Shown: positions 4,977-55,257 of the stretch, one piece after another
How the letters are laid out: the number at the start of each line of letters is the position of its first letter
How positions within the stretch are numbered: position 1 is the stretch's first letter
NCBI GenBank assembly: GCA_964291675.2
Contig: OZ219865.1
Location: forward strand, 384,001 to 448,000
Reading direction: 5' to 3'
DNA: 64,000 bases
Origin: Alphaproteobacteria bacterium
Lineage (GTDB): Bacteria; Pseudomonadota; Alphaproteobacteria; MPNO01
Notes under the pieces: model-generated
What the model saw: the letters and a program-made list of their open reading frames with translations, nothing else
The model's database searches: none
What the model was told of the DNA's origin: nothing
Translations under genes and position numbers: made by a program

Positions 4977-5849
4977 ATGAAACCTCCGCCATTCACCTAT
5001 CACGACCCGCGAACGATCCCCGAAGTGCTGGATCTGCTGGCGGAGAAGGACAACGCGCGGCTGCTCTCGGGCGGGCAGTCGCTGATGCCCATGCTCAACA
5101 TGCGCTACGTGCTGCCCGACGACGTGATCGACCTCAACCGGGTCGACGGGCTGACGGGGATCGAGGCGGCCAACGGCTCGCTCAGCATCCGCGGCATGAC
5201 GCGCCAGCGCGACATCGAGTTCTCCGATGCGGTCTCGGCGCGCTGCCCGATCATGAGCGAGGCGATCCTCCAGGTCGGCCACCGCCAGACCCGCAACCGC
5301 GGCACGCTCGGCGGCAGCCTCGCCCATCTCGACCCCTCGGCCGAGATCCCGGCGGTGGCGATGGCGCTCGACGCGACGATCCATGTCGAGAGCAAGCGCG
5401 GCAGGCGCGACATCGCGATGGCCGATTTCCCGGCCGGCTACATGACCCCGTCGATCGAGCTCGACGAGATGGTGACGGCTGCGACCTTCCCGCTCTGGGA
5501 CGAGGGACACGGCTACGCCTTCATCGAGTTCGCCCGCCGGCACGGCGATTTCGCCATCGTGTCGGCCGCCGCGCTGCTCACCGTGGACGGCGCCGGCAAG
5601 GTCGACCGGGTCTCGATCACGGTCAGCGGCGTCGGCCCCTCGCCGGTGCGCTGCACCGAGGCCGAGGCGATGATTTTGGGGCAGACGCCCGGGCTCGAGC
5701 TGTTCCGCGAGGCGGCGGAGACCGCGCGCGCCTACGAGGCGATGGAGGACGTGCATGCGCCGTCTTCCTATCGCCAGCATCTGGCGGCCGTGCTGTCGCG
5801 GCGCGCGCTCGAGAAGGCGCAGACGCGTCTGGGAGGTTCCAATGGCTGA
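4977..5849 (+). CDS. Molybdenum hydroxylase (xanthine dehydrogenase/CoxM family) FAD-binding subunit
   Basis: MKPPPFTYH, GGQSLMPMLNMR, RNRGTLGGS and RRHGDFA motifs. Confidence 0.93.
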   Translation: MKPPPFTYHDPRTIPEVLDLLAEKDNARLLSGGQSLMPMLNMRYVLPDDVIDLNRVDGLTGIEAANGSLSIRGMTRQRDIEFSDAVSARCPIMSEAILQVGHRQTRNRGTLGGSLAHLDPSAEIPAVAMALDATIHVESKRGRRDIAMADFPAGYMTPSIELDEMVTAATFPLWDEGHGYAFIEFARRHGDFAIVSAAALLTVDGAGKVDRVSITVSGVGPSPVRCTEAEAMILGQTPGLELFREAAETARAYEAMEDVHAPSSYRQHLAAVLSRRALEKAQTRLGGSNG

Positions 5850-39758: not shown

Positions 39759-40357
39759 GCGGGGGTTTCGCGCTGACGCCCGAGAACCGGGCCAAGGCCG
39801 AGGCCTTCGTCGCGCGCTACCCCGAAGGGCGGCAGGCCTCGGCGGTGCTCGCCGTGCTTGACATCGCGCAGCGCCAGAACGGCGGCTGGCTGTCGCCGTC
39901 GGCGGTCGAGCACGTCGCCCGGATGCTCGACATGGCGGAGATCCGGATCTACGAGATCGTATCGTTCTACGAGATGCTGCACGCCGAACCGGTGGGCGAG
40001 CACATGGTCAGGGTCTGCACCACCACCCCCTGCATGCTGCGCGGCAGCACCGACATTCTGGAGGCCTGCAAGGGCGAGCTCGGCGTCGAGATCGGCGGCA
40101 CCACCGCGGACGGCAAGTTCACCCTGACCGAGTTCGAGTGCCTCGGCGCCTGCGTCAACGCGCCGATCGTCTGGATCGACGACGACTACTACGAGGATCT
40201 CGACCCGGAGAGGGTTGTGGCGATCCTCAAGGCGTTGCGCGCCGGAGAACCGCCCGAGCCGGGCTCGCAGATCGGCCGCCGGGGATCGGCGCCGCTCGGC
40301 GAATGGACCTCGCAGACCGGGTTCGCGCCCGCCGGCGGGGCGGGGGAGGGCGGCTGA
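39755..40357 (+). CDS. nuoE: NADH-quinone oxidoreductase subunit E
   Basis: CTTTPC and [10 protein letters not shown] motifs; GTG start. Confidence 0.94.
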
Positions 40358-41646
40358 TGGCGCTCGCCGACAAAGACCGCATCTTCACCAACCTCTACGG
40401 CCAGGACGACTGGCGGCTCGCCGGGGCCAGGCGGCGCGGCGACTGGGACGGTACCGGCGCGCTGCTCGCCAAGGGGCGCGACTGGGCGGTCGAGGAGGTC
40501 AAGTCGTCGGGGCTTCGCGGGCGCGGCGGGGCCGGGTTCCCGACCGGGCTCAAATGGTCCTTCATGCCCAGGGAATCGGACGGCCGGCCGTCATATCTCG
40601 TCGTCAACGCGGACGAGAGCGAGCCCGGAACCTGCAAGGATCGCGACATCTTGCGGAACGATCCCCACAAGCTGATCGAAGGGTCGCTGCTGGCCGGCTT
40701 CGCCATGGGGGCGCACACCGCCTTCATCTACGTGCGCGGCGAGTTCTTCCGCGAGGCCGAGCGGCTGGAGACGGCGGTCGGCGAGGCGCGCGAGGCCGGG
40801 CTGATCGGTCCCGACGCCTGCGGCTCGGGCTGGGATTTCGACATCGTCGTCCATCGCGGCGCCGGCGCCTATATCTGCGGCGAGGAGACCGGGCTCCTGG
40901 AAAGCCTCGAGGGCAAGAAGGGGATGCCCCGGATCAAGCCGCCGTTTCCGGCCAATACCGGTCTCTACGGCTGTCCGACGACGATCAACAACGTCGAGAC
41001 GATCGCCGTGGTGCCGGCGATCCTGCGCCGCGGCGCCTCCTGGTTCGCCGGGTTCGGACGGGAGAACAACACCGGCACCAAGGTGTTCTGCATCTCCGGC
41101 CATGTGAACGACCCGTGCAACGTCGAAGAGGAGATGGGGATCCCGCTGCGCGAGCTGATCGAGAAGCACGCCGGCGGGGTGCGCGGCGGCTGGGACAACC
41201 TCAAGGCGGTGATCCCGGGCGGCTCGTCGGTACCGCTCATCCCGAGATCGCTGTGCGACACCGCGATCATGGACTTCGACGGGCTGCGCGACCTCAAGTC
41301 GGGGCTCGGCACGGCGGCGGTGATCGTCATGGACGAATCGACCGACGTGGTCGCAGCCATCGCCCGGCTGTCGAAGTTCTACATGCACGAATCCTGCGGC
41401 CAGTGCACGCCCTGCCGCGAGGGCACGGGCTGGATGTGGCGGGTGATGGAGCGGCTGGTCCGCGGCGATGCCGAGGTCGAGGAGATCGACATGCTGCTCG
41501 CCGTGAGCTACGAGATCGAGGGCCACACGATCTGCGCCCACGGCGACGCCTCGGCCTGGCCGATCCAGGGCCTGATGCGCCACTTCCGCGACGAGGTGGA
41601 GAGCCGCATCGTCGCCCGCAAGTCGGGCCGCGAGGCGGCGGCGTAG
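40357..41646 (+). CDS. nuoF: NADH-quinone oxidoreductase subunit F
   Basis: [19 protein letters not shown] and [12 protein letters not shown] motifs. Confidence 0.96.
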
Positions 41647-41651
41647 ACGGG

Positions 41652-42248
41652 ATGTCCGAGCTCCGGATCGAGTATCTGGTCCTGTTCGCGGGGTTCGTGC
41701 TGCCCGGCGCGATATCGATGTATGTGTATGCGTTGAATGTTCCTCAAAGAGAAGAAAACCTGAAGAATAAGATAATCGAATGTATTTGCTTCAGCATTTT
41801 GAATTTTATTGTTATGATAGTTCCGATCCGATACGCGCTGGAACACTGGAACTTGAACGATAACTTTATATGGAGCTATGCTCTCTTAATTTTGTCCTTT
41901 ATTGCGATGCCCATTATTTGGCCATATATTTTGATCCAGTTGCTGGATAAATTCGAGAAGTTTCGTTGGATCGCTCCGCGCCCGAAGACTTCTTGGGATT
42001 TCGTGTTCCAAAAAGAGACCGGCTGTTGGCTGCAGGTCGCGATGAAGGACGGTAGCCGGATCGGCGGGAAGTTCAGCCAGAATTCATACGCAACCGCCTA
42101 TCCGGATCCCGGCCATCTCTATCTTGAAGAGGTCTGGGAAGTGGATGGCGATGGCGGTTTCCTGAGGCAGTACCTGAACGAGCCCGGGATAATCTTGAGG
42201 CCCGAAGACTATAACTATGTCCTCGTCTATGGAGGTGGAGATGGATGA
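41652..42248 (+). CDS. Low-GC membrane protein, DUF6338-like
   Basis: Three predicted TMs (FVLPG motif), then SWDFVF...G.RIGG.F...S.A..YP...HLYLEE.W...GIIL; visibly AT-rich relative to nuo genes. Confidence 0.75.
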   Translation: MSELRIEYLVLFAGFVLPGAISMYVYALNVPQREENLKNKIIECICFSILNFIVMIVPIRYALEHWNLNDNFIWSYALLILSFIAMPIIWPYILIQLLDKFEKFRWIAPRPKTSWDFVFQKETGCWLQVAMKDGSRIGGKFSQNSYATAYPDPGHLYLEEVWEVDGDGGFLRQYLNEPGIILRPEDYNYVLVYGGGDG

Positions 42249-42417
42249 AAAACGGAAGGGACAAAGGCGAGTTTCCTCGCGCGGCGTCTTGGGGGAGAGG
42301 TTCGGTTATCAGCCGCAAACCGCCGCGCCGGCCAATCCGCCCACGGGCAAAGGTTCGAAGTCTGCGCCAAAGAGCGGTGCGAGCGGTTCGTCGTCCGATA
42401 GCAAGAAAACGAAGTAG
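42241..42417 (+). CDS. Small basic Ser/Gly/Pro-rich peptide (58 aa) with GYQP...NPP.G.GS motif
   Basis: GGAGGTGGAG RBS; ATG overlaps the end of the DUF6338-like gene. Confidence 0.55.
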   Translation: MDEKRKGQRRVSSRGVLGERFGYQPQTAAPANPPTGKGSKSAPKSGASGSSSDSKKTK

Positions 42418-42470
42418 GCCCGCGGCGGGGCGGGATCGCTGACAGGTTAAGCGTCTGAAATGACTATGCC

Positions 42471-44528
42471 ATGGCCACACTGACCATCGACGGAATCGAG
42501 ATCGAGGTCGAGGACGGGATCACCGTCCTGCAGGCCTGCGAGGAGGCCGGCATCGAGATCCCGCGCTTCTGCTATCACGAGCGGCTGTCGATCGCCGGCA
42601 ATTGCCGCATGTGCCTGGTCGAGATGGAGCGCTCGCCCAAGCCGATCGCCTCCTGCGCCATGCCGGTCGGCAACAACATGGTGATCCGCACCGACACGCC
42701 GATGGTCCAGAAGGCGCGCCAGGGGGTGATGGAGTTCCTGCTGATCAACCATCCGCTCGACTGCCCGATCTGCGACCAGGGCGGCGAGTGCGATTTGCAG
42801 GACCAGGCGATGGCCTACGGCTTCGACCGCTCGCGCTTCGCCGAGAACAAGCGCGCCGTGCCGGACAAGGATTTCGGCCCGCTGGTCGAGACCCACATGA
42901 CGCGCTGCATCCACTGCACGCGCTGCATCCGCTTCGTGACCGAAATCGCCGGCGTCGAGGAGCTCGGCGCCACCGGGCGCGGCGAGCACATGGAGGTCGG
43001 CACCTATGTCGAGAAGGCGCTCGCCTCCGAGCTGTCGGGCAACATCATCGATCTCTGCCCGGTGGGCGCGCTGACCTCGAAACCCTACGCCTTCAACGCG
43101 CGTCCCTGGGAGCTCGCCAAGACCGAGACCGTGGACGTGATGGACGCGGTCGGCAGCAATGTCCGCGTCGACTCGCGGGACGGCGAGGTGCAGCGGGTGA
43201 TCCCGCTGCTGAACGAGGACATCAACGAGGAGTGGATTTCCGACAAGGCGCGGTTCGCCTGCGACGGGCTGCGCCGCCAGCGCCTCGACACGCCCTATGT
43301 GCGCCGCGACGGCAGGCTGGCGCCCGCGAGCTGGGCGGAGGCGCTCGGCGCGGTCGCCGACAGGCTGGGCGGGACCGCGCCGGAGCGCATGGCGGCGATC
43401 GCCGGCGACCTGGCCTGCTGCGAGTCGATGGCGATGCTGAAGGACCTGTTCGCCGCGCTCGGCTCGCCCCATGTCGATGCGCGCCAGGAGGGGGCGAAGC
43501 TCTCGGCGGCGGCGCGCGCCGGCTACCTGTTCAACACCGCCATCGCCGGGATCGAGGACGCCGATGCCTGCCTGATCGTGGGCGCGGACGTGCGCCGCGA
43601 AGCCCCGCTGGTCAATGCGCGCCTGCGCAAGCGGCATTCGATGGGCGGCTTCCCGGTCGGGCTGATCGGCGAGCCGGTCGACCTCGCCTGGCGCTACGAC
43701 CATCTCGGCAACGACGCCGCCCTGCTCTCTGAAATCGCCGTCGGCGAACACCCGTTCCGCTCAAAACTGGAAGCGGCCGCGCGTCCGATGATCGTCCTCG
43801 GCGAGGCGGCCTACGCGCGCGACGACGGGGCGCGAATCCTCGGCACCGCCCGTGCGATCGCCGAACGCTTCGGCATGGCGGGCGAAGAGTGGAACGGGTT
43901 CAACGTGCTGCACCGTGCCGCCGCCCGGGTCGGCGGGCTCGATCTCGGCCTGGTGCCGGGCGAGGGCGGGCGCGACGTGGACGCGATCCTGGCGGGCGCG
44001 GAAAGCGGCGAGATCGAAGCGGTCTATCTGCTCGGCGCCGACGAGATCGACACGCAAAGGCTCGGCGAAGCCTTCGTGGTCTATCAGGGCCATCACGGCG
44101 ACGCCGGGGCGATGCGCGCCGACGTCATCCTGCCGGGCGCGGCCTATACCGAGAAGGAGGCGACCTACGTCAACCTCGAGGGCCGGCCGCAGCGCACCGC
44201 CCGCGCGGTGCATCCGCCGGGCGAGGCGCGCGAGGACTGGCGCATCCTGCGCGCGCTGTCCGAGATTCTCGGCCGGAAGCTGCCCTGCGACACGGTGGAC
44301 GAGGTGCGCGCGCGGATGGCGGCGATCGCCCCGGTCCTCGCCGGGATCGGCGCGGTCGAGCGGGCGCCCTGGCAGGCGTTCGGCGAGGACGGGCCGCCCG
44401 ATCCCGGACCGCTCGGCACCGCGATCGGCAACTACTACATGACCGACCCGATCTCGCGGTCGTCGGAGACCATGGCGGCCTGCACGCGGGCCTTCCTGGA
44501 GACCTCCCGGGCGGCGGCGCATGGATAG
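42471..44528 (+). CDS. nuoG: NADH-quinone oxidoreductase subunit G
   Basis: [21 protein letters not shown] and RCIHCTRC motifs. Confidence 0.96.
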
Positions 44529-46962: not shown

Positions 46963-48893
46963 GTGCTGTATTCGCTTGCCGTCTTCCTGCCGCTGATCGG
47001 CGCCGCGATCGCCGGGCCGTTCGGCCGGCTGATCGGCGACCGGGCCGCGCAATACGTGACCTGCGGGGCGCTGATCGGCTCGGCCGCGATCTCGACCCTG
47101 ATCCTCTACGAGGTGGCGCTCGGCGGCGAGCCGCGCTCGATCGTGCTGTTCTCCTGGATGACCTCGGGCACGTTCGACGCGGTCTGGTCGCTGCGCTTCG
47201 ACCAGCTCGCCGCGGTGATGGTCTTCGTGGTGTCGGTGGTCTCGGCCTGCGTGCATGTCTACTCGATCGGCTACATGCACCACGACCCGTCGATCCCGCG
47301 CTTCATGGCCTATCTCAGCCTGTTCACCTTCTTCATGCTGGCGCTGGTGACGGCGGACAACCTGCTCCAGCTTTTCTTCGGCTGGGAGGGGGTGGGGCTC
47401 TGCTCCTACTTCCTGATCGGCTTCTGGTACGACCGGCCGGCCGCCAACGCGGCCGCGATCAAGGCCTTCATCGTCAACCGGGTGGGCGATTTCGGCTTCG
47501 CGCTCGGCATCATGGGCGTGTTCCTGGTGTTCGGCTCGATCGAGCTGCCGGCGATCTTCGGCGCCGCGCCGGAGAAGGCCGAGGCGACGATCTCCTTCCT
47601 CGGCCTGGAGGGGCATGCGCTGACCGTGCTCTGCATCCTCTGTTCATCGGCGCGATGGGGAAATCGGCGCAGCTCGGCCTGCACACCTGGCTGCCCGACG
47701 CGATGGAGGGGCCGACCCCGGTCTCGGCCCTGATCCACGCGGCGACGATGGTCACCGCGGGCGTCTTCCTGGTCGCGCGCATGTCGCCGCTCTTCGAATA
47801 CGCCCCCGCGGCGCTCACCCTGGTGGCGATCGTCGGCGCCGCGACCGCGTTCTTCGCCGCGACCATCGGGCTCTGCCAGAACGACATCAAGCGGGTGATC
47901 GCCTATTCGACATGCAGCCAGCTCGGCTACATGTTCTTCGCCTGCGGGGTCTCGGCCTATTCCGCCGGCATCTTCCACCTGATGACGCATGCCTTCTTCA
48001 AGGCGCTCCTGTTCCTCGGCGCGGGCTCGGTGATCCACGCGATGTCGTCCGAGCAGGACATGCGCCGGATGGGCGGGCTCTACCGGCTGATCCCGACGAC
48101 CTACGGGCTGATGTGGATCGGCAGCCTGGCGCTCGCCGGCATCCCGGTCTTCGCCGGGTTCTATTCCAAGGACGTGATCATCGAATCGGCCTTTGCCGCG
48201 CATACCCTGGCCGGGGACTTCGCCTTCTGGGCCGGCATCGCGGCGGCCTTCATGACCGCCTTCTATTCCTGGCGGCTGCTGATCATGACCTTCCACGGCG
48301 CGCCCAGGGCGGACGAGCGCACCATGGCGCATGTCCATGAATCGCCGCTGTCGATGATCGCGCCGCTGGTCGTGCTGGCCGCCGGCGCGGTGTTCTCCGG
48401 CATGCTCGGCTACCGCTACTTCGTGGGCGACGGTCTCGCCTCGTTCTGGGGCGATTCGATCCTCGTCCTGCCCGGCCACGACGCGCTCGCGGACGCCCAC
48501 CACGCGCCGCTCTGGGTCATCGCGCTCCCCGTCGCCGTCGCCGTCGCCGGGATCGCGCTCGCCTACTGGTTCTACATGTTGCGGCCCGGCCTGCCGGTCG
48601 CGCTCGCCGCAAGGTTCGCGCGCCTCTACCGGTTCCTGCTCAACAAGTGGTATTTCGACGAGCTTTACGACTGGCTGTTCGTGCGCCCGGCCCACCGCAT
48701 CGGCCGCGGGCTGTGGAAGGAGGGCGACGGCACGCTGATCGACGGGCTCGGCCCCGACGGGCTGTCCGCGGTCGCCCGCACGCTGGCGCGCCGGGCCAGC
48801 ATGCTGCAGTCGGGCTATGTCTACCACTACGCCTTCGCCATGCTGATCGGCGTCGCCGCCTTCGTGACCTGGTACCTCTATGCGCAGGGCTGA
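46963..48893 (+). CDS. nuoL: NADH-quinone oxidoreductase subunit L (frameshift at ~47640, probably a sequence error)
   Basis: N-terminal part ...WEGVGLCSY...LCIL continues in the -1 frame as (L)[26 protein letters not shown]; one C missing. Confidence 0.92.
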
Positions 48894-52586: not shown

Positions 52587-53350
52587 CCATCGATTCGGGC
52601 AACACCAATATCGTCTTCGCGCTCTATGACGGCGAAGAGCAGATGGGCGTCTGGCGGAGCTCCAGCGATCCGCGCCGCACGGCCGACGAATACGCGGTCT
52701 GGCTGAGCCAGCTCATGTCGCTGCGCGATCTCTCGGCGGGCGATGTCGACGCCGCGATCGTCGCCACCGTCGTGCCCGAGGCGCTGTTCAGCCTGCGCAC
52801 GCTGTGCCGCTCCTATTTCGGCTGCGAGGCGCTGGTGATCGGCGAGCCGGGGGTCGAGCTCGGCATCGGCGTCAAGGTGGACAACCCGGCCGAGGTCGGC
52901 ACCGACCGCCTGGTCAACGCGGTCGGCGCACATGAGCGGTTCGGCGGACCCCTGATCGTCATCGATTTCGGCACCGCGACCACCTTCGACGTGGTCGACG
53001 GCGAGGGCAGCTATGTCGGCGGCGTGATTGCGCCCGGGATCAACCTGTCGCTGGACGCGCTCCACGCGGCGGCCGCGCAGCTCCCCCGCGTCGCCGTCCG
53101 GCGGCCGCCCCGGGTGATCGGCAAGCGCACCGTGCCGGCGATGCTGTCCGGCATCTATTGGGGCTATATCGGGCTGATCGAGGGGCTGGTGGCGCGCATC
53201 GCCGAGGAATACGGCGCCGACATGAAGGTGATCGCCACCGGCGGGCTGGCGCCGCTCTTCGCCGAGGGGACGCCGGTCATCGGCGACGTCGATCCCGAGA
53301 TGACGCTGCGCGGCCTGGCCTCGATCTGGCGGCGGAACCGGGACGCATGA
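52577..53350 (+). CDS. coaX: Type III pantothenate kinase
   Basis: IDSGNTN, GTDR, DFGTATT and ATGG motifs; GTG start. Confidence 0.93.
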
Positions 53351-54996
53351 AGAGCGCGCAAGAGCTTTCGTTCGTCGCCCTCGGCGGCGCCGGCGAGATC
53401 GGCATGAATCTCAGCCTCTACGGTTGTGGCGGGCGCTGGCTGATGGTCGATCTCGGGCTCGGATTCGCGGACGACTCGACACCGGGGATCGACATCCTGG
53501 TTCCCGATCCGGCGTTTATCGTCGAACGCCGCGAGGCGCTTGACGGGATCGTGCTGACCCATGCGCATGAGGACCATCTGGGTGCGGTCGCCACCCTCTG
53601 GCCGCGGCTGCGCCGCCCGGTCTACGCCTCGCCCTTCGCGGCGGCGGTGCTGGGCCGGAAGCTGGCGGAGGCCGGGCTGAAGAACGTGCCGCTCCGCATC
53701 GTCCAGCCCAACGCGCGCTTCGATGTCGGCCCCTTCGAGATCGAGTATCTGACCGCGGCGCATTCGATCCCCGAGGGCCACGTGCTCGCCATCCGGACGG
53801 CCGCGGGGCTTGCCGTCCATGCCACCGACTGGAAGCTCGATCCCTCGCCGCTGGTCGGCGCGACGACCGACGAGAACCGCCTGCGCGCGCTGGGCGCCGA
53901 GGGCGTCAGCGCGCTCACCGTCGATTCGACCAACGCCATGGTTGAGGGGCGCGCCGGTTCCGAGGGCGTGCTGAGGGACAGCCTGACCGAGATTGTCGCG
54001 AACTGCGCCGGCCGCGTCGCGATCGCCTGTTTTTCCAGCAACATCGCGCGCATCGAGACCATCGCGCATGCCGCGGCGGCCAACGATCGCCAGGCCTGCC
54101 TGGTGGGGCGGTCGCTCTGGCGCATGGTCGAGGCGGCGCGCGAGACGGGCTATCTGGCCGACACGCCGCCCTTCCTCACCGAGCACGACGCCGGGTACCT
54201 GCCGCCGGACAGGGTGGCGATGGCGGTCACCGGAAGCCAGGGCGAGAAGCGCTCGGCGCTGGCTCGGATCGCCGCCGGCGACCACCCCGCGGTGGCGCTG
54301 GAGCCCGGCGACACGGTGATATTTTCCTCGCGCCAGATCCCCGGCAACGAGCTCGCGATTTCGCGCGTGCAGAACCAGCTCGTGAGGCGGGGGATCGAGG
54401 TGATCGACGACGGCGCACGCGACACCCACGTCTCCGGCCACCCGGCGCGCGAGGAACTGCGCGCGCTCTATGAATGGCTGGCCCCCGCCGCCGTGGTGCC
54501 GATCCACGGCGAGGCGCGCCATCTCTTCGAGCAGGCCGCGCTCGCCCGCTCCGCCGGGGTGCCCGATGCGATGGTGGCGGAGAACGGCACGCTCGTCAGG
54601 CTGATACCCGGGCCGCTGGAGGCGCTGGGCGAGGTCGAGACCGGGCGGCTCGGGCTCGACGGCAAGCGGCTGGTGCCGGTCGACGGCGGGGCGGTGCGGA
54701 TGCGCCATCGCATCGGCTTCGCAGGCTCCGCGGTCGCCACGGTGGTCCTCGACCGCCGCGGCGCGCTGGCGGCCGACCCCCGGGTGACGCTGCACGGGGT
54801 GGTCGAGCCCGACGATGCGGAAGAGATCGAGGAGGAGGCGATCGACGCGGTGATCGATGCCATAGACGACCTCCCGAAGGGCGCCAGGCGCGACGACGAA
54901 GGTATCGCCGAAGCCGCGCGCCGCGCCCTGGTGCGCGCCGTCCGGCGGGCGATCGGAAAGCGCCCGGTGGCCCAGGTCCATGTCGTCCGGGTCTGA
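53347..54996 (+). CDS. rnj: Ribonuclease J
   Basis: [30 protein letters not shown] and PIHGE motifs. Confidence 0.94.
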
Positions 54997-55011
54997 GCGG
55001 AGCCCGCGCGG

Positions 55012-55257
55012 ATGAGCTGGTTCACCGGACTCATGGTCTTCCTGATCCTCTGGTGGCTGGTCTTCTTCGTCACGCTTCCCTTCGGGGTCCGCGCGCCGCA
55101 CGAGGCGGGCGAGAGCGTCGAGCCGGGCCATGCCGACGGCGCGCCGGTTCGGCCGCGGCTGTGGTTCAAGGTCGGGATCACCACCGTGGTAACGGCCGTC
55201 CTCTGGGGCATCGCCTATTGGCTGATCGCCTCCGACCTGATTTCGTTCCGCGGCTGA
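55012..55257 (+). CDS. DUF1467 family membrane protein
   Basis: WWLVFFVTLPFGVR...PG.ADGAP motif; usual position after rnj. Confidence 0.85.
   Translation: MSWFTGLMVFLILWWLVFFVTLPFGVRAPHEAGESVEPGHADGAPVRPRLWFKVGITTVVTAVLWGIAYWLIASDLISFRG

Follow-up and report, generated by a model that had tools for sequence, protein, structure and literature searches.

In a proteogenomic study of Pseudomonas stutzeri, three novel proline-rich small proteins were found to be encoded directly after a gene of the DUF6338 family, in a unit designated 'operon 9' (PMC10433244). Mass spectrometry identified all three (44-114 spectra; 98-100% sequence coverage), and partner peptides of DUF6338 are thereby documented as translated in that species. 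In the passages devoted to this operon, the authors call the three proteins P. stutzeri-only, raise an antimicrobial role, note the presence of DUF6338 in biosynthetic gene clusters as well, and state that membrane fractions were not analysed (PMC10433244). Here, we describe a related arrangement in a stretch of 64,000 nucleotides from an Alphaproteobacteria bacterium (contig OZ219865.1, positions 384,001 to 448,000 of the forward strand; this whole stretch is called the window, and coordinates refer to it), where a DUF6338 membrane protein gene and an overlapping gene for a 58-residue peptide occupy the interval from nuoF to nuoG in the complex I operon. As in operon 9, the DUF6338 gene is followed by small proline-rich coding sequence, here a single open reading frame (ORF); unlike operon 9, the window copy is located within a nuo operon, and its peptide family shares a motif across phyla. 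On sequence evidence, the two genes constitute a genuine module, formed by a DUF6338 membrane protein and a translationally coupled proline-rich peptide with the motif E-x-x-G-[YF]-x-P ... P-P. One lineage of this module resides at the nuoF-nuoG junction of some Alphaproteobacteria, where it is inherited with the operon, is AT-rich, and has had its alleles replaced.

The second group of described systems comprises the unidentified reading frames (URFs) of alphaproteobacterial nuo and nqo operons, which have been known for a long time. In Rhodovulum, urf1 occupies the nuoE-nuoF junction, and its product was recently found to be a structural component of the light-harvesting 1-reaction centre (LH1-RC) complex (PMC13066640); for urf7 in the nuo operon of Rhodobacter capsulatus, an assembly-linked methyltransferase has been put forward as the product (PMC9036352). 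A phylogenomic study of complex I treats non-nuo ORFs merely as a counting rule (PMC4453560). In the passages of this literature that concern the URFs, neither a partner peptide nor allele exchange is reported. The cassette resembles the URFs in consisting of non-nuo ORFs at a complex I gene junction, apparently carried on the nuo transcript, and urf1 products, like DUF6338, combine N-terminal membrane helices with a compact C-terminal domain (PMC13066640). Unlike the cassette, urf1 is found at the nuoE-nuoF junction, and the likeness to the URFs is one of layout. No description was found in the literature of a DUF6338-peptide pair at nuoF-nuoG, nor of the peptide family as a conserved one. 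In Paracoccus, two URFs are present between NQO1 and NQO3, which is the same junction.

The gene pair recurs outside the window. Searches with tblastn located DUF6338 in 20 plasmid records and one phage record, blastn located it in 6 of 5426 complete Escherichia coli genomes, and a pattern-based scan of species representatives (one genome per species), biased to the subfamily found in the window, yielded 11 loci. One of these, a 33-residue partial match on a Bacteroidetes contig (L011), was left out of every count, leaving 10 nuo loci. The window, these 10 nuo relatives, 13 plasmid or phage loci, and three E. coli loci made up the 27 loci compared. A same-strand small ORF with G[YFW]xP was observed directly after DUF6338 in 26 of the 27, namely in the window and 10/10 nuo loci, in 12/13 plasmid or phage loci, and in 3/3 E. 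coli loci. Outside nuo operons, one to three such ORFs are present in 15 of the 16 loci; each contains G[YFW]xP one to three times and ends in a proline-rich stretch, for which PPKKP is a frequent form. The motif control covered 20 of the loci, with 510 control windows of 600 nt. An ORF with G[YFW]xP was present in 20/20 downstream regions, compared with 2/20 on the reverse strand and 65/510 control windows; when PP was additionally required within 3-30 residues, the counts were 18/20 downstream regions versus 5/510 control windows. The initial annotation had stated that DUF6338 genes are often accompanied by tiny unannotated ORFs of the GYQP...PP.G.S type, and the counts bear this out for ORFs that are in many cases unannotated. 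The pair was found in Gamma-, Beta-, and Alphaproteobacteria and in Actinobacteria. In addition, a natural fusion (P0101) carries a GYRP...PP.GGS tail at the C-terminus of DUF6338; it is the sole fusion among 23 representatives with tails of at least 15 residues, and a search by alignment for longer fused DUF6338 forms found none, a result that is weak evidence. Several motif ORFs after DUF6338 are unannotated in the plasmid records (L013, 3765-3950; L018, 4549-4746; L019, 4439-4702; and L015, 4571-4717, the first of that locus).

The peptide gene of the window (P0001; 42241..42417, + strand) begins within the final codons of the DUF6338 gene, its start overlapping the DUF6338 stop by 8 nt. 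A GGAGG ribosome-binding site is located at 42231..42235 (+), within the end of the DUF6338 gene and 5 nt before the ATG. The encoded product contains FGYQPQTAAPANPPTGKGS. An alternative in-frame ATG at 42217 would give 66 residues; the relatives favour the 58-residue start. In 10/10 related nuo loci, the motif-bearing small ORF is present and retains both an ATG and, at most 20 nt before it, a GGAG-like site; the start of the ORF ranges from 20 nt inside the DUF6338 gene to 22 nt past the DUF6338 stop. Alignment of 11 peptide sequences revealed a conserved linear motif at residues 19-39 (42295..42357, +). The nuo-type motif reads [LI][LI][IVF]-E-x-x-G-[YF]-x-P, followed by seven residues and P-[PS]; E19, G22, P25, and P33 are invariant in the alignment, and P34 is nearly so. 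Pairwise ratios of nonsynonymous to synonymous substitution rates (dN/dS) of 0.20-0.47 indicated purifying selection on the peptide gene, weaker than that on DUF6338. A chance ORF was considered and rejected owing to the conservation, the start signals, and the motif control; as far as sequence can tell, the small ORF is a real gene.

The peptide is hydrophilic, proline-rich, and basic, has no signal or leader sequence, and is probably disordered. Pfam holds no family for it, and the top score obtained with the ESM Atlas (0.75) was below the meaningful level. When a profile of the nuo-type peptide was used to search a large protein collection, which does not contain the peptide of the window itself, 32 more small proteins were recovered, all of them unnamed or 'hypothetical' and without a Pfam domain. 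Proteins P0185, P0195, P0198, and P0204 (101-121 residues) start with LIIE[KR]GGYRP...PP and continue into a longer C-terminal part that is not proline-rich; they may represent a different use of the same motif. A tandem duplication of the motif was observed in the Acetobacteraceae-type clade (L004, 5595-5777; L005, 5615-5842; and L006, 5593-5805), and also in many metagenomic relatives.

The upstream gene of the pair (41652..42248, +; ATG at 41652 and TGA at 42246-42248) encodes a protein of 198 residues (P0002), which the initial annotation had described as DUF6338-like, with three transmembrane segments and a beta-rich soluble domain; both parts of that description held. The protein matched PF19865 with an E-value of 1.8e-37 and 129.3 bits (gathering cut-off 26.5), residues 8-193 aligning to profile positions 7-200 of 205, i.e., it is a full-length member of a family that comprises 1966 clusters at 50% identity (E up to 0.001). 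AlphaFold models were obtained for the window protein (27-sequence alignment, predicted local distance difference test (pLDDT) 71.8) and for P0101 (135-sequence alignment, pLDDT 88.3). Both models featured three long helices, then a helix and a strongly bent beta sheet. The three predicted transmembrane helices of the window protein span residues 6-29, 37-64, and 69-103 (41667..41960, +), and they are followed by a putative Sm/LSm-like beta-barrel domain at residues 114-193 (41991..42230, +), predicted to be cytoplasmic, which comprises seven strands in the model. For the beta domain of both models, all the PDB matches listed by Foldseek were Sm/LSm-fold chains; these matches are weak (E 0.009-0.05, none at or below 0.001; probability 0.94-1.00; template modelling score relative to the target 0.45-0.68). 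A profile search against PDB sequences gave a best E-value of 0.43. Loop 1 contains three lysine or arginine residues, loop 2 none, and the segment following helix 3 five, a distribution that suggests, by the positive-inside rule, that the N-terminus is outside and that the beta-barrel and the C-terminus are in the cytoplasm.

Conservation was examined over 137 family representatives. Helix positions P18, G19, N51, and P87 are conserved, and the barrel residues W115, D116, F119, G139, S145, P151, and G179 are kept in at least 89% of the representatives. The conserved positions contain no obvious catalytic set, and a catalytic triad in the beta domain was rejected, as H155 of the nuo subfamily does not recur among the positions conserved family-wide. 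Where the synonymous rate (dS) is finite, the dN/dS ratio of the DUF6338 gene is 0.07-0.08, which indicates purifying selection. MscS-type channels are built from three membrane helices and an Sm-like beta domain, and the layout of DUF6338, three helices and then a beta domain predicted to be cytoplasmic, recalls them. No MscS chain was among the listed Foldseek hits for the DUF6338 beta domain. Searches of PADLOC, PHROGs, and NCBIfam gave zero matches for P0002 and P0001, PADLOC returned 0 families for the two plasmid DUF6338 proteins scanned, and no toxin or antitoxin family was found among the Pfam hits, NCBIfam, or PADLOC for either protein. The module is largely undescribed, with no counterpart recognized among described toxin-antitoxin or defence families.

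The slot that holds the cassette is bordered by nuoF on the left (40357..41646, +; Pfam Complex1_51K, SLBB_2, and NADH_4Fe-4S; TAG stop at 41644-41646) and by nuoG on the right (42471..44528, +; Pfam Fer2_4, NADH-G_4Fe-4S_3, Molybdopterin, and NADH_dhqG_C). A spacer of 5 nt (41647..41651, +) separates the nuoF stop from the DUF6338 start, and a spacer of 53 nt without a terminator (42418..42470, +) separates the peptide gene from nuoG. The GC content falls to 0.41 at 41700-41999, compared with 0.67-0.70 in the flanks, and the two 1-kb bins that contain the cassette (0.602 and 0.627) rank below the other 62 bins of the window. The DUF6338 gene itself has a GC content of 0.48, and its GC content at third codon positions (GC3) is 0.63 (0.63-0.67 across the cassette), compared with 0.93 in nuoF and nuoG. 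In the region 41000-43000, one promoter-like site was detected versus 0.4 expected from shuffling, which is no excess, and two terminator-like sites were detected versus 1.9 expected. The lone sigma-70-like site is located inside the DUF6338 gene (41902-41930, +; TTGCGA, a 17-nt spacer, and TATATT). Within the same 2-kb region, no repeats flanking the cassette were found beyond short chance pairs, and Rfam gave no match. No transposase or recombinase is present at the slot, which contains only two ORFs between nuoF and nuoG and has no terminal repeats; a transposon or insertion element was thus rejected as an explanation, given the two ORFs and the lack of flanking repeats. Since no promoter or terminator signals of its own are seen, expression of the cassette from the nuo transcript fits, and we infer that both genes are read from it. 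These results agree with what the initial annotation had read from the sequence: an AT-rich gene of about 198 codons starting 5 nt after the nuoF stop, an overlapping 58-codon ORF with a strong ribosome-binding site, no transposase, repeats, or own promoter, and expression from the nuo transcript.

Comparison with related operons indicated that the cassette is an old resident of this position. DUF6338 is located between nuoF and nuoG in 10/10 full-length relatives, which belong to several alphaproteobacterial lineages. When a nuo tree (concatenated NuoD, F, G, and H) was compared with a cassette tree (DUF6338), the clades formed by the window, L001, and L002 and by L004, L005, and L006 were recovered in both. 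Because the junction is the same in 10/10 relatives and the two clades are common to both trees, the cassette appears to have been co-inherited with the operon for a long time, and a recent insertion was rejected on the same grounds. The 'foreign cassette' of the initial annotation is hence retained with regard to its foreign-like composition, and a fresh insertion is dismissed. Three of the related loci have peculiarities of their own. L008 is a contig labelled Mycobacteriaceae with an alphaproteobacterial-type nuo operon that includes the cassette and is approximately 71% identical to the window in its Nuo proteins; it is probably mis-binned. In L009 (5001-5563) the DUF6338 gene is split over two frames near 5264, and in L010 (3633-4876) nuoF is in two pieces; each may be a pseudogene or an assembly error of a metagenome-assembled genome (MAG).

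Within the conserved position, the sequence of the cassette behaves differently from that of its flanks. The closest relative of the window is L002, a Defluviicoccus MAG, whose nuoF protein is 97.7% identical to that of the window. Measured per 100 nt, identity to L002 is 92-100% over nuoD-nuoF up to 41651, falls to 41-78% over 41652-42517, and is 97% from 42518; at the right border, identity to both L002 and L001 returns at the nuoG start codon. Synonymous differences (pS) relative to L002 are 0.084 in nuoF and 0.113 in nuoG, whereas DUF6338 reaches 0.756 and the peptide gene 0.675, a saturated level. Since the synonymous sites of the cassette are saturated, selection on the protein does not explain the divergence. 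The trees point in the same direction: the nuo tree groups the window with L002 (support 100/99), whereas the DUF6338 tree groups it with L001 (99/97). In approximately unbiased (AU) tests, the nuo data reject the clade of the window and L001 (p 0.0007) and the cassette data reject the clade of the window and L002 (p 0.012). Near-identical flanks combined with a saturated synonymous difference inside the cassette imply that cassette alleles have been swapped and that the slot is hypervariable, as judged from these comparisons, and the simplest account of the pattern would be allele replacement via recombination through the conserved nuoF and nuoG flanks. O-antigen or capsule loci and defence hotspots are exchangeable variable loci held between conserved flanks. 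Like them, the nuo slot shows a sharp identity drop, conserved borders, and saturated synonymous sites inside; unlike them, it spans only ~820 nt within an essential respiratory operon and is occupied by the same two genes in every case.

Outside nuo operons, plasmids both small and large carry the pair, as do a Klebsiella phage-plasmid, Tn7-like cargo, and E. coli elements with an integrase. About half of the 16 non-nuo loci (L012, L015, L018, L020, L021, L024, L025, and L027) have defence-type genes next to the pair or close by. In L018, a cyclase (E 5.8e-125) of a cyclic-oligonucleotide-based antiphage signalling system (CBASS) and a 2TM effector are found directly upstream of the pair. A Prok-E2 and an E1-JAB protein lie upstream of the pair in L015, with a degraded version in L021; a ThsB-like TIR protein and a caspase lie downstream in L012; a CHAT protease adjoins the pair on the downstream side in L020; and a type I restriction enzyme lies upstream of DUF6338 in L024. 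The element of the E. coli loci L025 and L027 also carries a TIR protein, accompanied by SIR2 in L025. In these two chromosomes, DUF6338 and a peptide with three motif copies are part of an integrase-bearing element adjoining yfhL/shoB.

Considering these data together, we tentatively favour the view that the pair is a self-contained module for conflict or addiction that rides on the nuo transcript, a function that is possible although somewhat short of probable. The initial annotation had named a toxin-antitoxin pair, an anti-phage sensor-effector pair, and a peptide with its processing or receptor protein as candidate functions. In such a module, the peptide motif would bind the cytoplasmic Sm-like barrel, and the bound peptide would keep the membrane protein, possibly a ring-forming oligomer, inactive. 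It is because the peptide would hold the membrane protein inactive that the pair could act as a toxin-antitoxin-like or abortive-infection-like module. The essential nuo operon would then offer a safe, constantly transcribed home with protection from deletion, and alleles would be replaced through recombination across the conserved nuoF and nuoG flanks. The pair has several traits in common with toxin-antitoxin and abortive-infection modules that have a membrane effector (CBASS 2TM/SLATT), namely a compact co-translated gene pair, carriage on mobile elements, defence neighbours, and a small multi-pass membrane protein. It differs from these modules in that it has no PADLOC or NCBIfam match and that the nuo loci need no sensor or enzyme partner. 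Furthermore, and unlike the situation in toxin-antitoxin modules, the candidate antitoxin is a probably disordered peptide without a DNA-binding fold, sometimes present in two or three copies. A more specific version, which we regard as rather unlikely as a whole, would make the pair a new two-component conflict class, in which an Sm-like ring is shut by a multivalent, short-lived motif peptide. In that version, the nuo lineage would be a recombinase-free mobile cassette spreading and diversifying among Alphaproteobacteria via flank recombination, with the operon giving expression and protection.

Several observations weigh against the conflict or addiction module. The P. stutzeri peptides are proline-rich and have PPPKK-type ends without G[YFW]xP in the operon 9 data (PMC10433244), so that the motif is common and not universal, and L024 has no G[YFW]xP ORF after DUF6338. 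The Sm-like assignment rests on Foldseek E-values of ~0.01. In the P0101 model, the body has a pLDDT >90 and the motif tail only 56-78, so the tail is not confidently docked. One to three tandem peptide genes per locus would be unusual for antitoxins, and neither protein matches PADLOC, PHROGs, or NCBIfam. Defence neighbours are present in 0/11 nuo loci, and the count for non-nuo loci is a raw one without a background rate. As for the exchange of alleles, the clades compared in the AU tests were named only after the trees had been seen, and the weaker codon bias of the cassette could push its synonymous rate up to some degree, although an effect large enough to take it from 0.1 to saturation is scarcely plausible.

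The alternative that survives best, although we consider it unlikely, is a lineage-specific accessory or assembly factor of complex I, with the membrane protein and the peptide recruited to the enzyme encoded around them, a route that other URFs of alphaproteobacterial nuo operons may also have taken. Such a factor would account for the position that is fixed in 10/10 relatives, for the clades shared with the nuo tree, for the purifying selection on both genes, and for a predicted membrane protein that is co-transcribed with nuo and has no signals of its own. The URFs provide precedents in urf1 (PMC13066640) and urf7 (PMC9036352). However, the same module occurs without nuo genes near DUF6338 in 16/16 non-nuo loci, and only 10 nuo-linked loci came from the scan of species representatives, itself biased to this subfamily. 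The GC3 of 0.63 versus 0.93 argues against a stoichiometric, highly expressed subunit, and swapping of the kind indicated by the saturated cassette, the near-identical flanks, and the conflict between the trees would be unexpected for a co-adapted subunit.

A peptide-product locus, in which the proline-rich cationic peptides would be antimicrobial or signalling molecules and DUF6338 a membrane immunity, export, or receptor protein, seems quite unlikely. Tandem peptide genes occur in multi-peptide bacteriocin loci, and the paralogous peptide genes, arranged in tandem and numbering one to three per locus, would fit this pattern, as would the basic, proline-rich composition and the conserved PPKKP-type ends of the peptides. 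An antimicrobial role and an occurrence in biosynthetic clusters are likewise raised in the operon 9 passages (PMC10433244). The peptides nevertheless have no signal or leader sequence, and neither a modifying enzyme nor an ATP-binding cassette (ABC) exporter adjoins the pair in any of the nuo loci or in the majority of the plasmid loci. The features expected of ribosomally synthesized and post-translationally modified peptide (RiPP) or bacteriocin loci were not found, the neighbours being nuoF and nuoG in 11/11 nuo loci. In addition, the P. stutzeri peptides were observed at near full length in the operon 9 data (98-100% coverage; PMC10433244), and the conserved DUF6338 domain is predicted to face the cytoplasm.

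Finally, a degenerating passenger, that is, an old insertion without present function that persists as clean removal is rare and whose small ORF is incidental, would suit the AT-rich composition and poor codon adaptation, the two-frame DUF6338 gene of L009, the lack of a known function, and a peptide without a family match, but it is very improbable in view of dN/dS values of 0.07-0.08 for DUF6338 and <0.5 for the peptide gene, of invariant motif residues, ATG, and GGAG-like sites in 10/10 loci despite saturated synonymous sites, and of the same pairing being kept across phyla.

The remainder of the operon was examined by Pfam. The complex I operon covers approximately 36.6-51.7 kb of the window, and Pfam gave the order nuoA, C, D, E, F, G, H, I, J, K, L, M, and N; the ORFs sent to Pfam included none for nuoB. 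The only non-nuo coding sequence within the operon is that of the nuoF-nuoG interval. The nuoL gene is split into two overlapping ORFs, 46963-47733 and 47655-48893, and its Proton_antipo_M match is broken at profile positions 84 and 93, indicating a frameshift or a sequencing error. Downstream of the nuo genes, at 53158-55257, an RNase J gene and a gene for a DUF1467 protein were found, which looks like ordinary context.

The module gives DUF6338, a large family of unknown function, a partner and a testable hypothesis. It also indicates that tiny, often unannotated peptide genes beside DUF6338 are conserved across phyla, though the three proteins of operon 9 were deemed species-specific in the passages describing them (PMC10433244). 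For the organisms that carry the cassette, it indicates that the complex I operon can offer, at one of its gene junctions, a stable slot to an accessory module that is exchangeable and diverges fast. The finding thus bears on the reading of nuo operons, on the annotation of small proteins, and possibly on the catalogue of defence and addiction systems.

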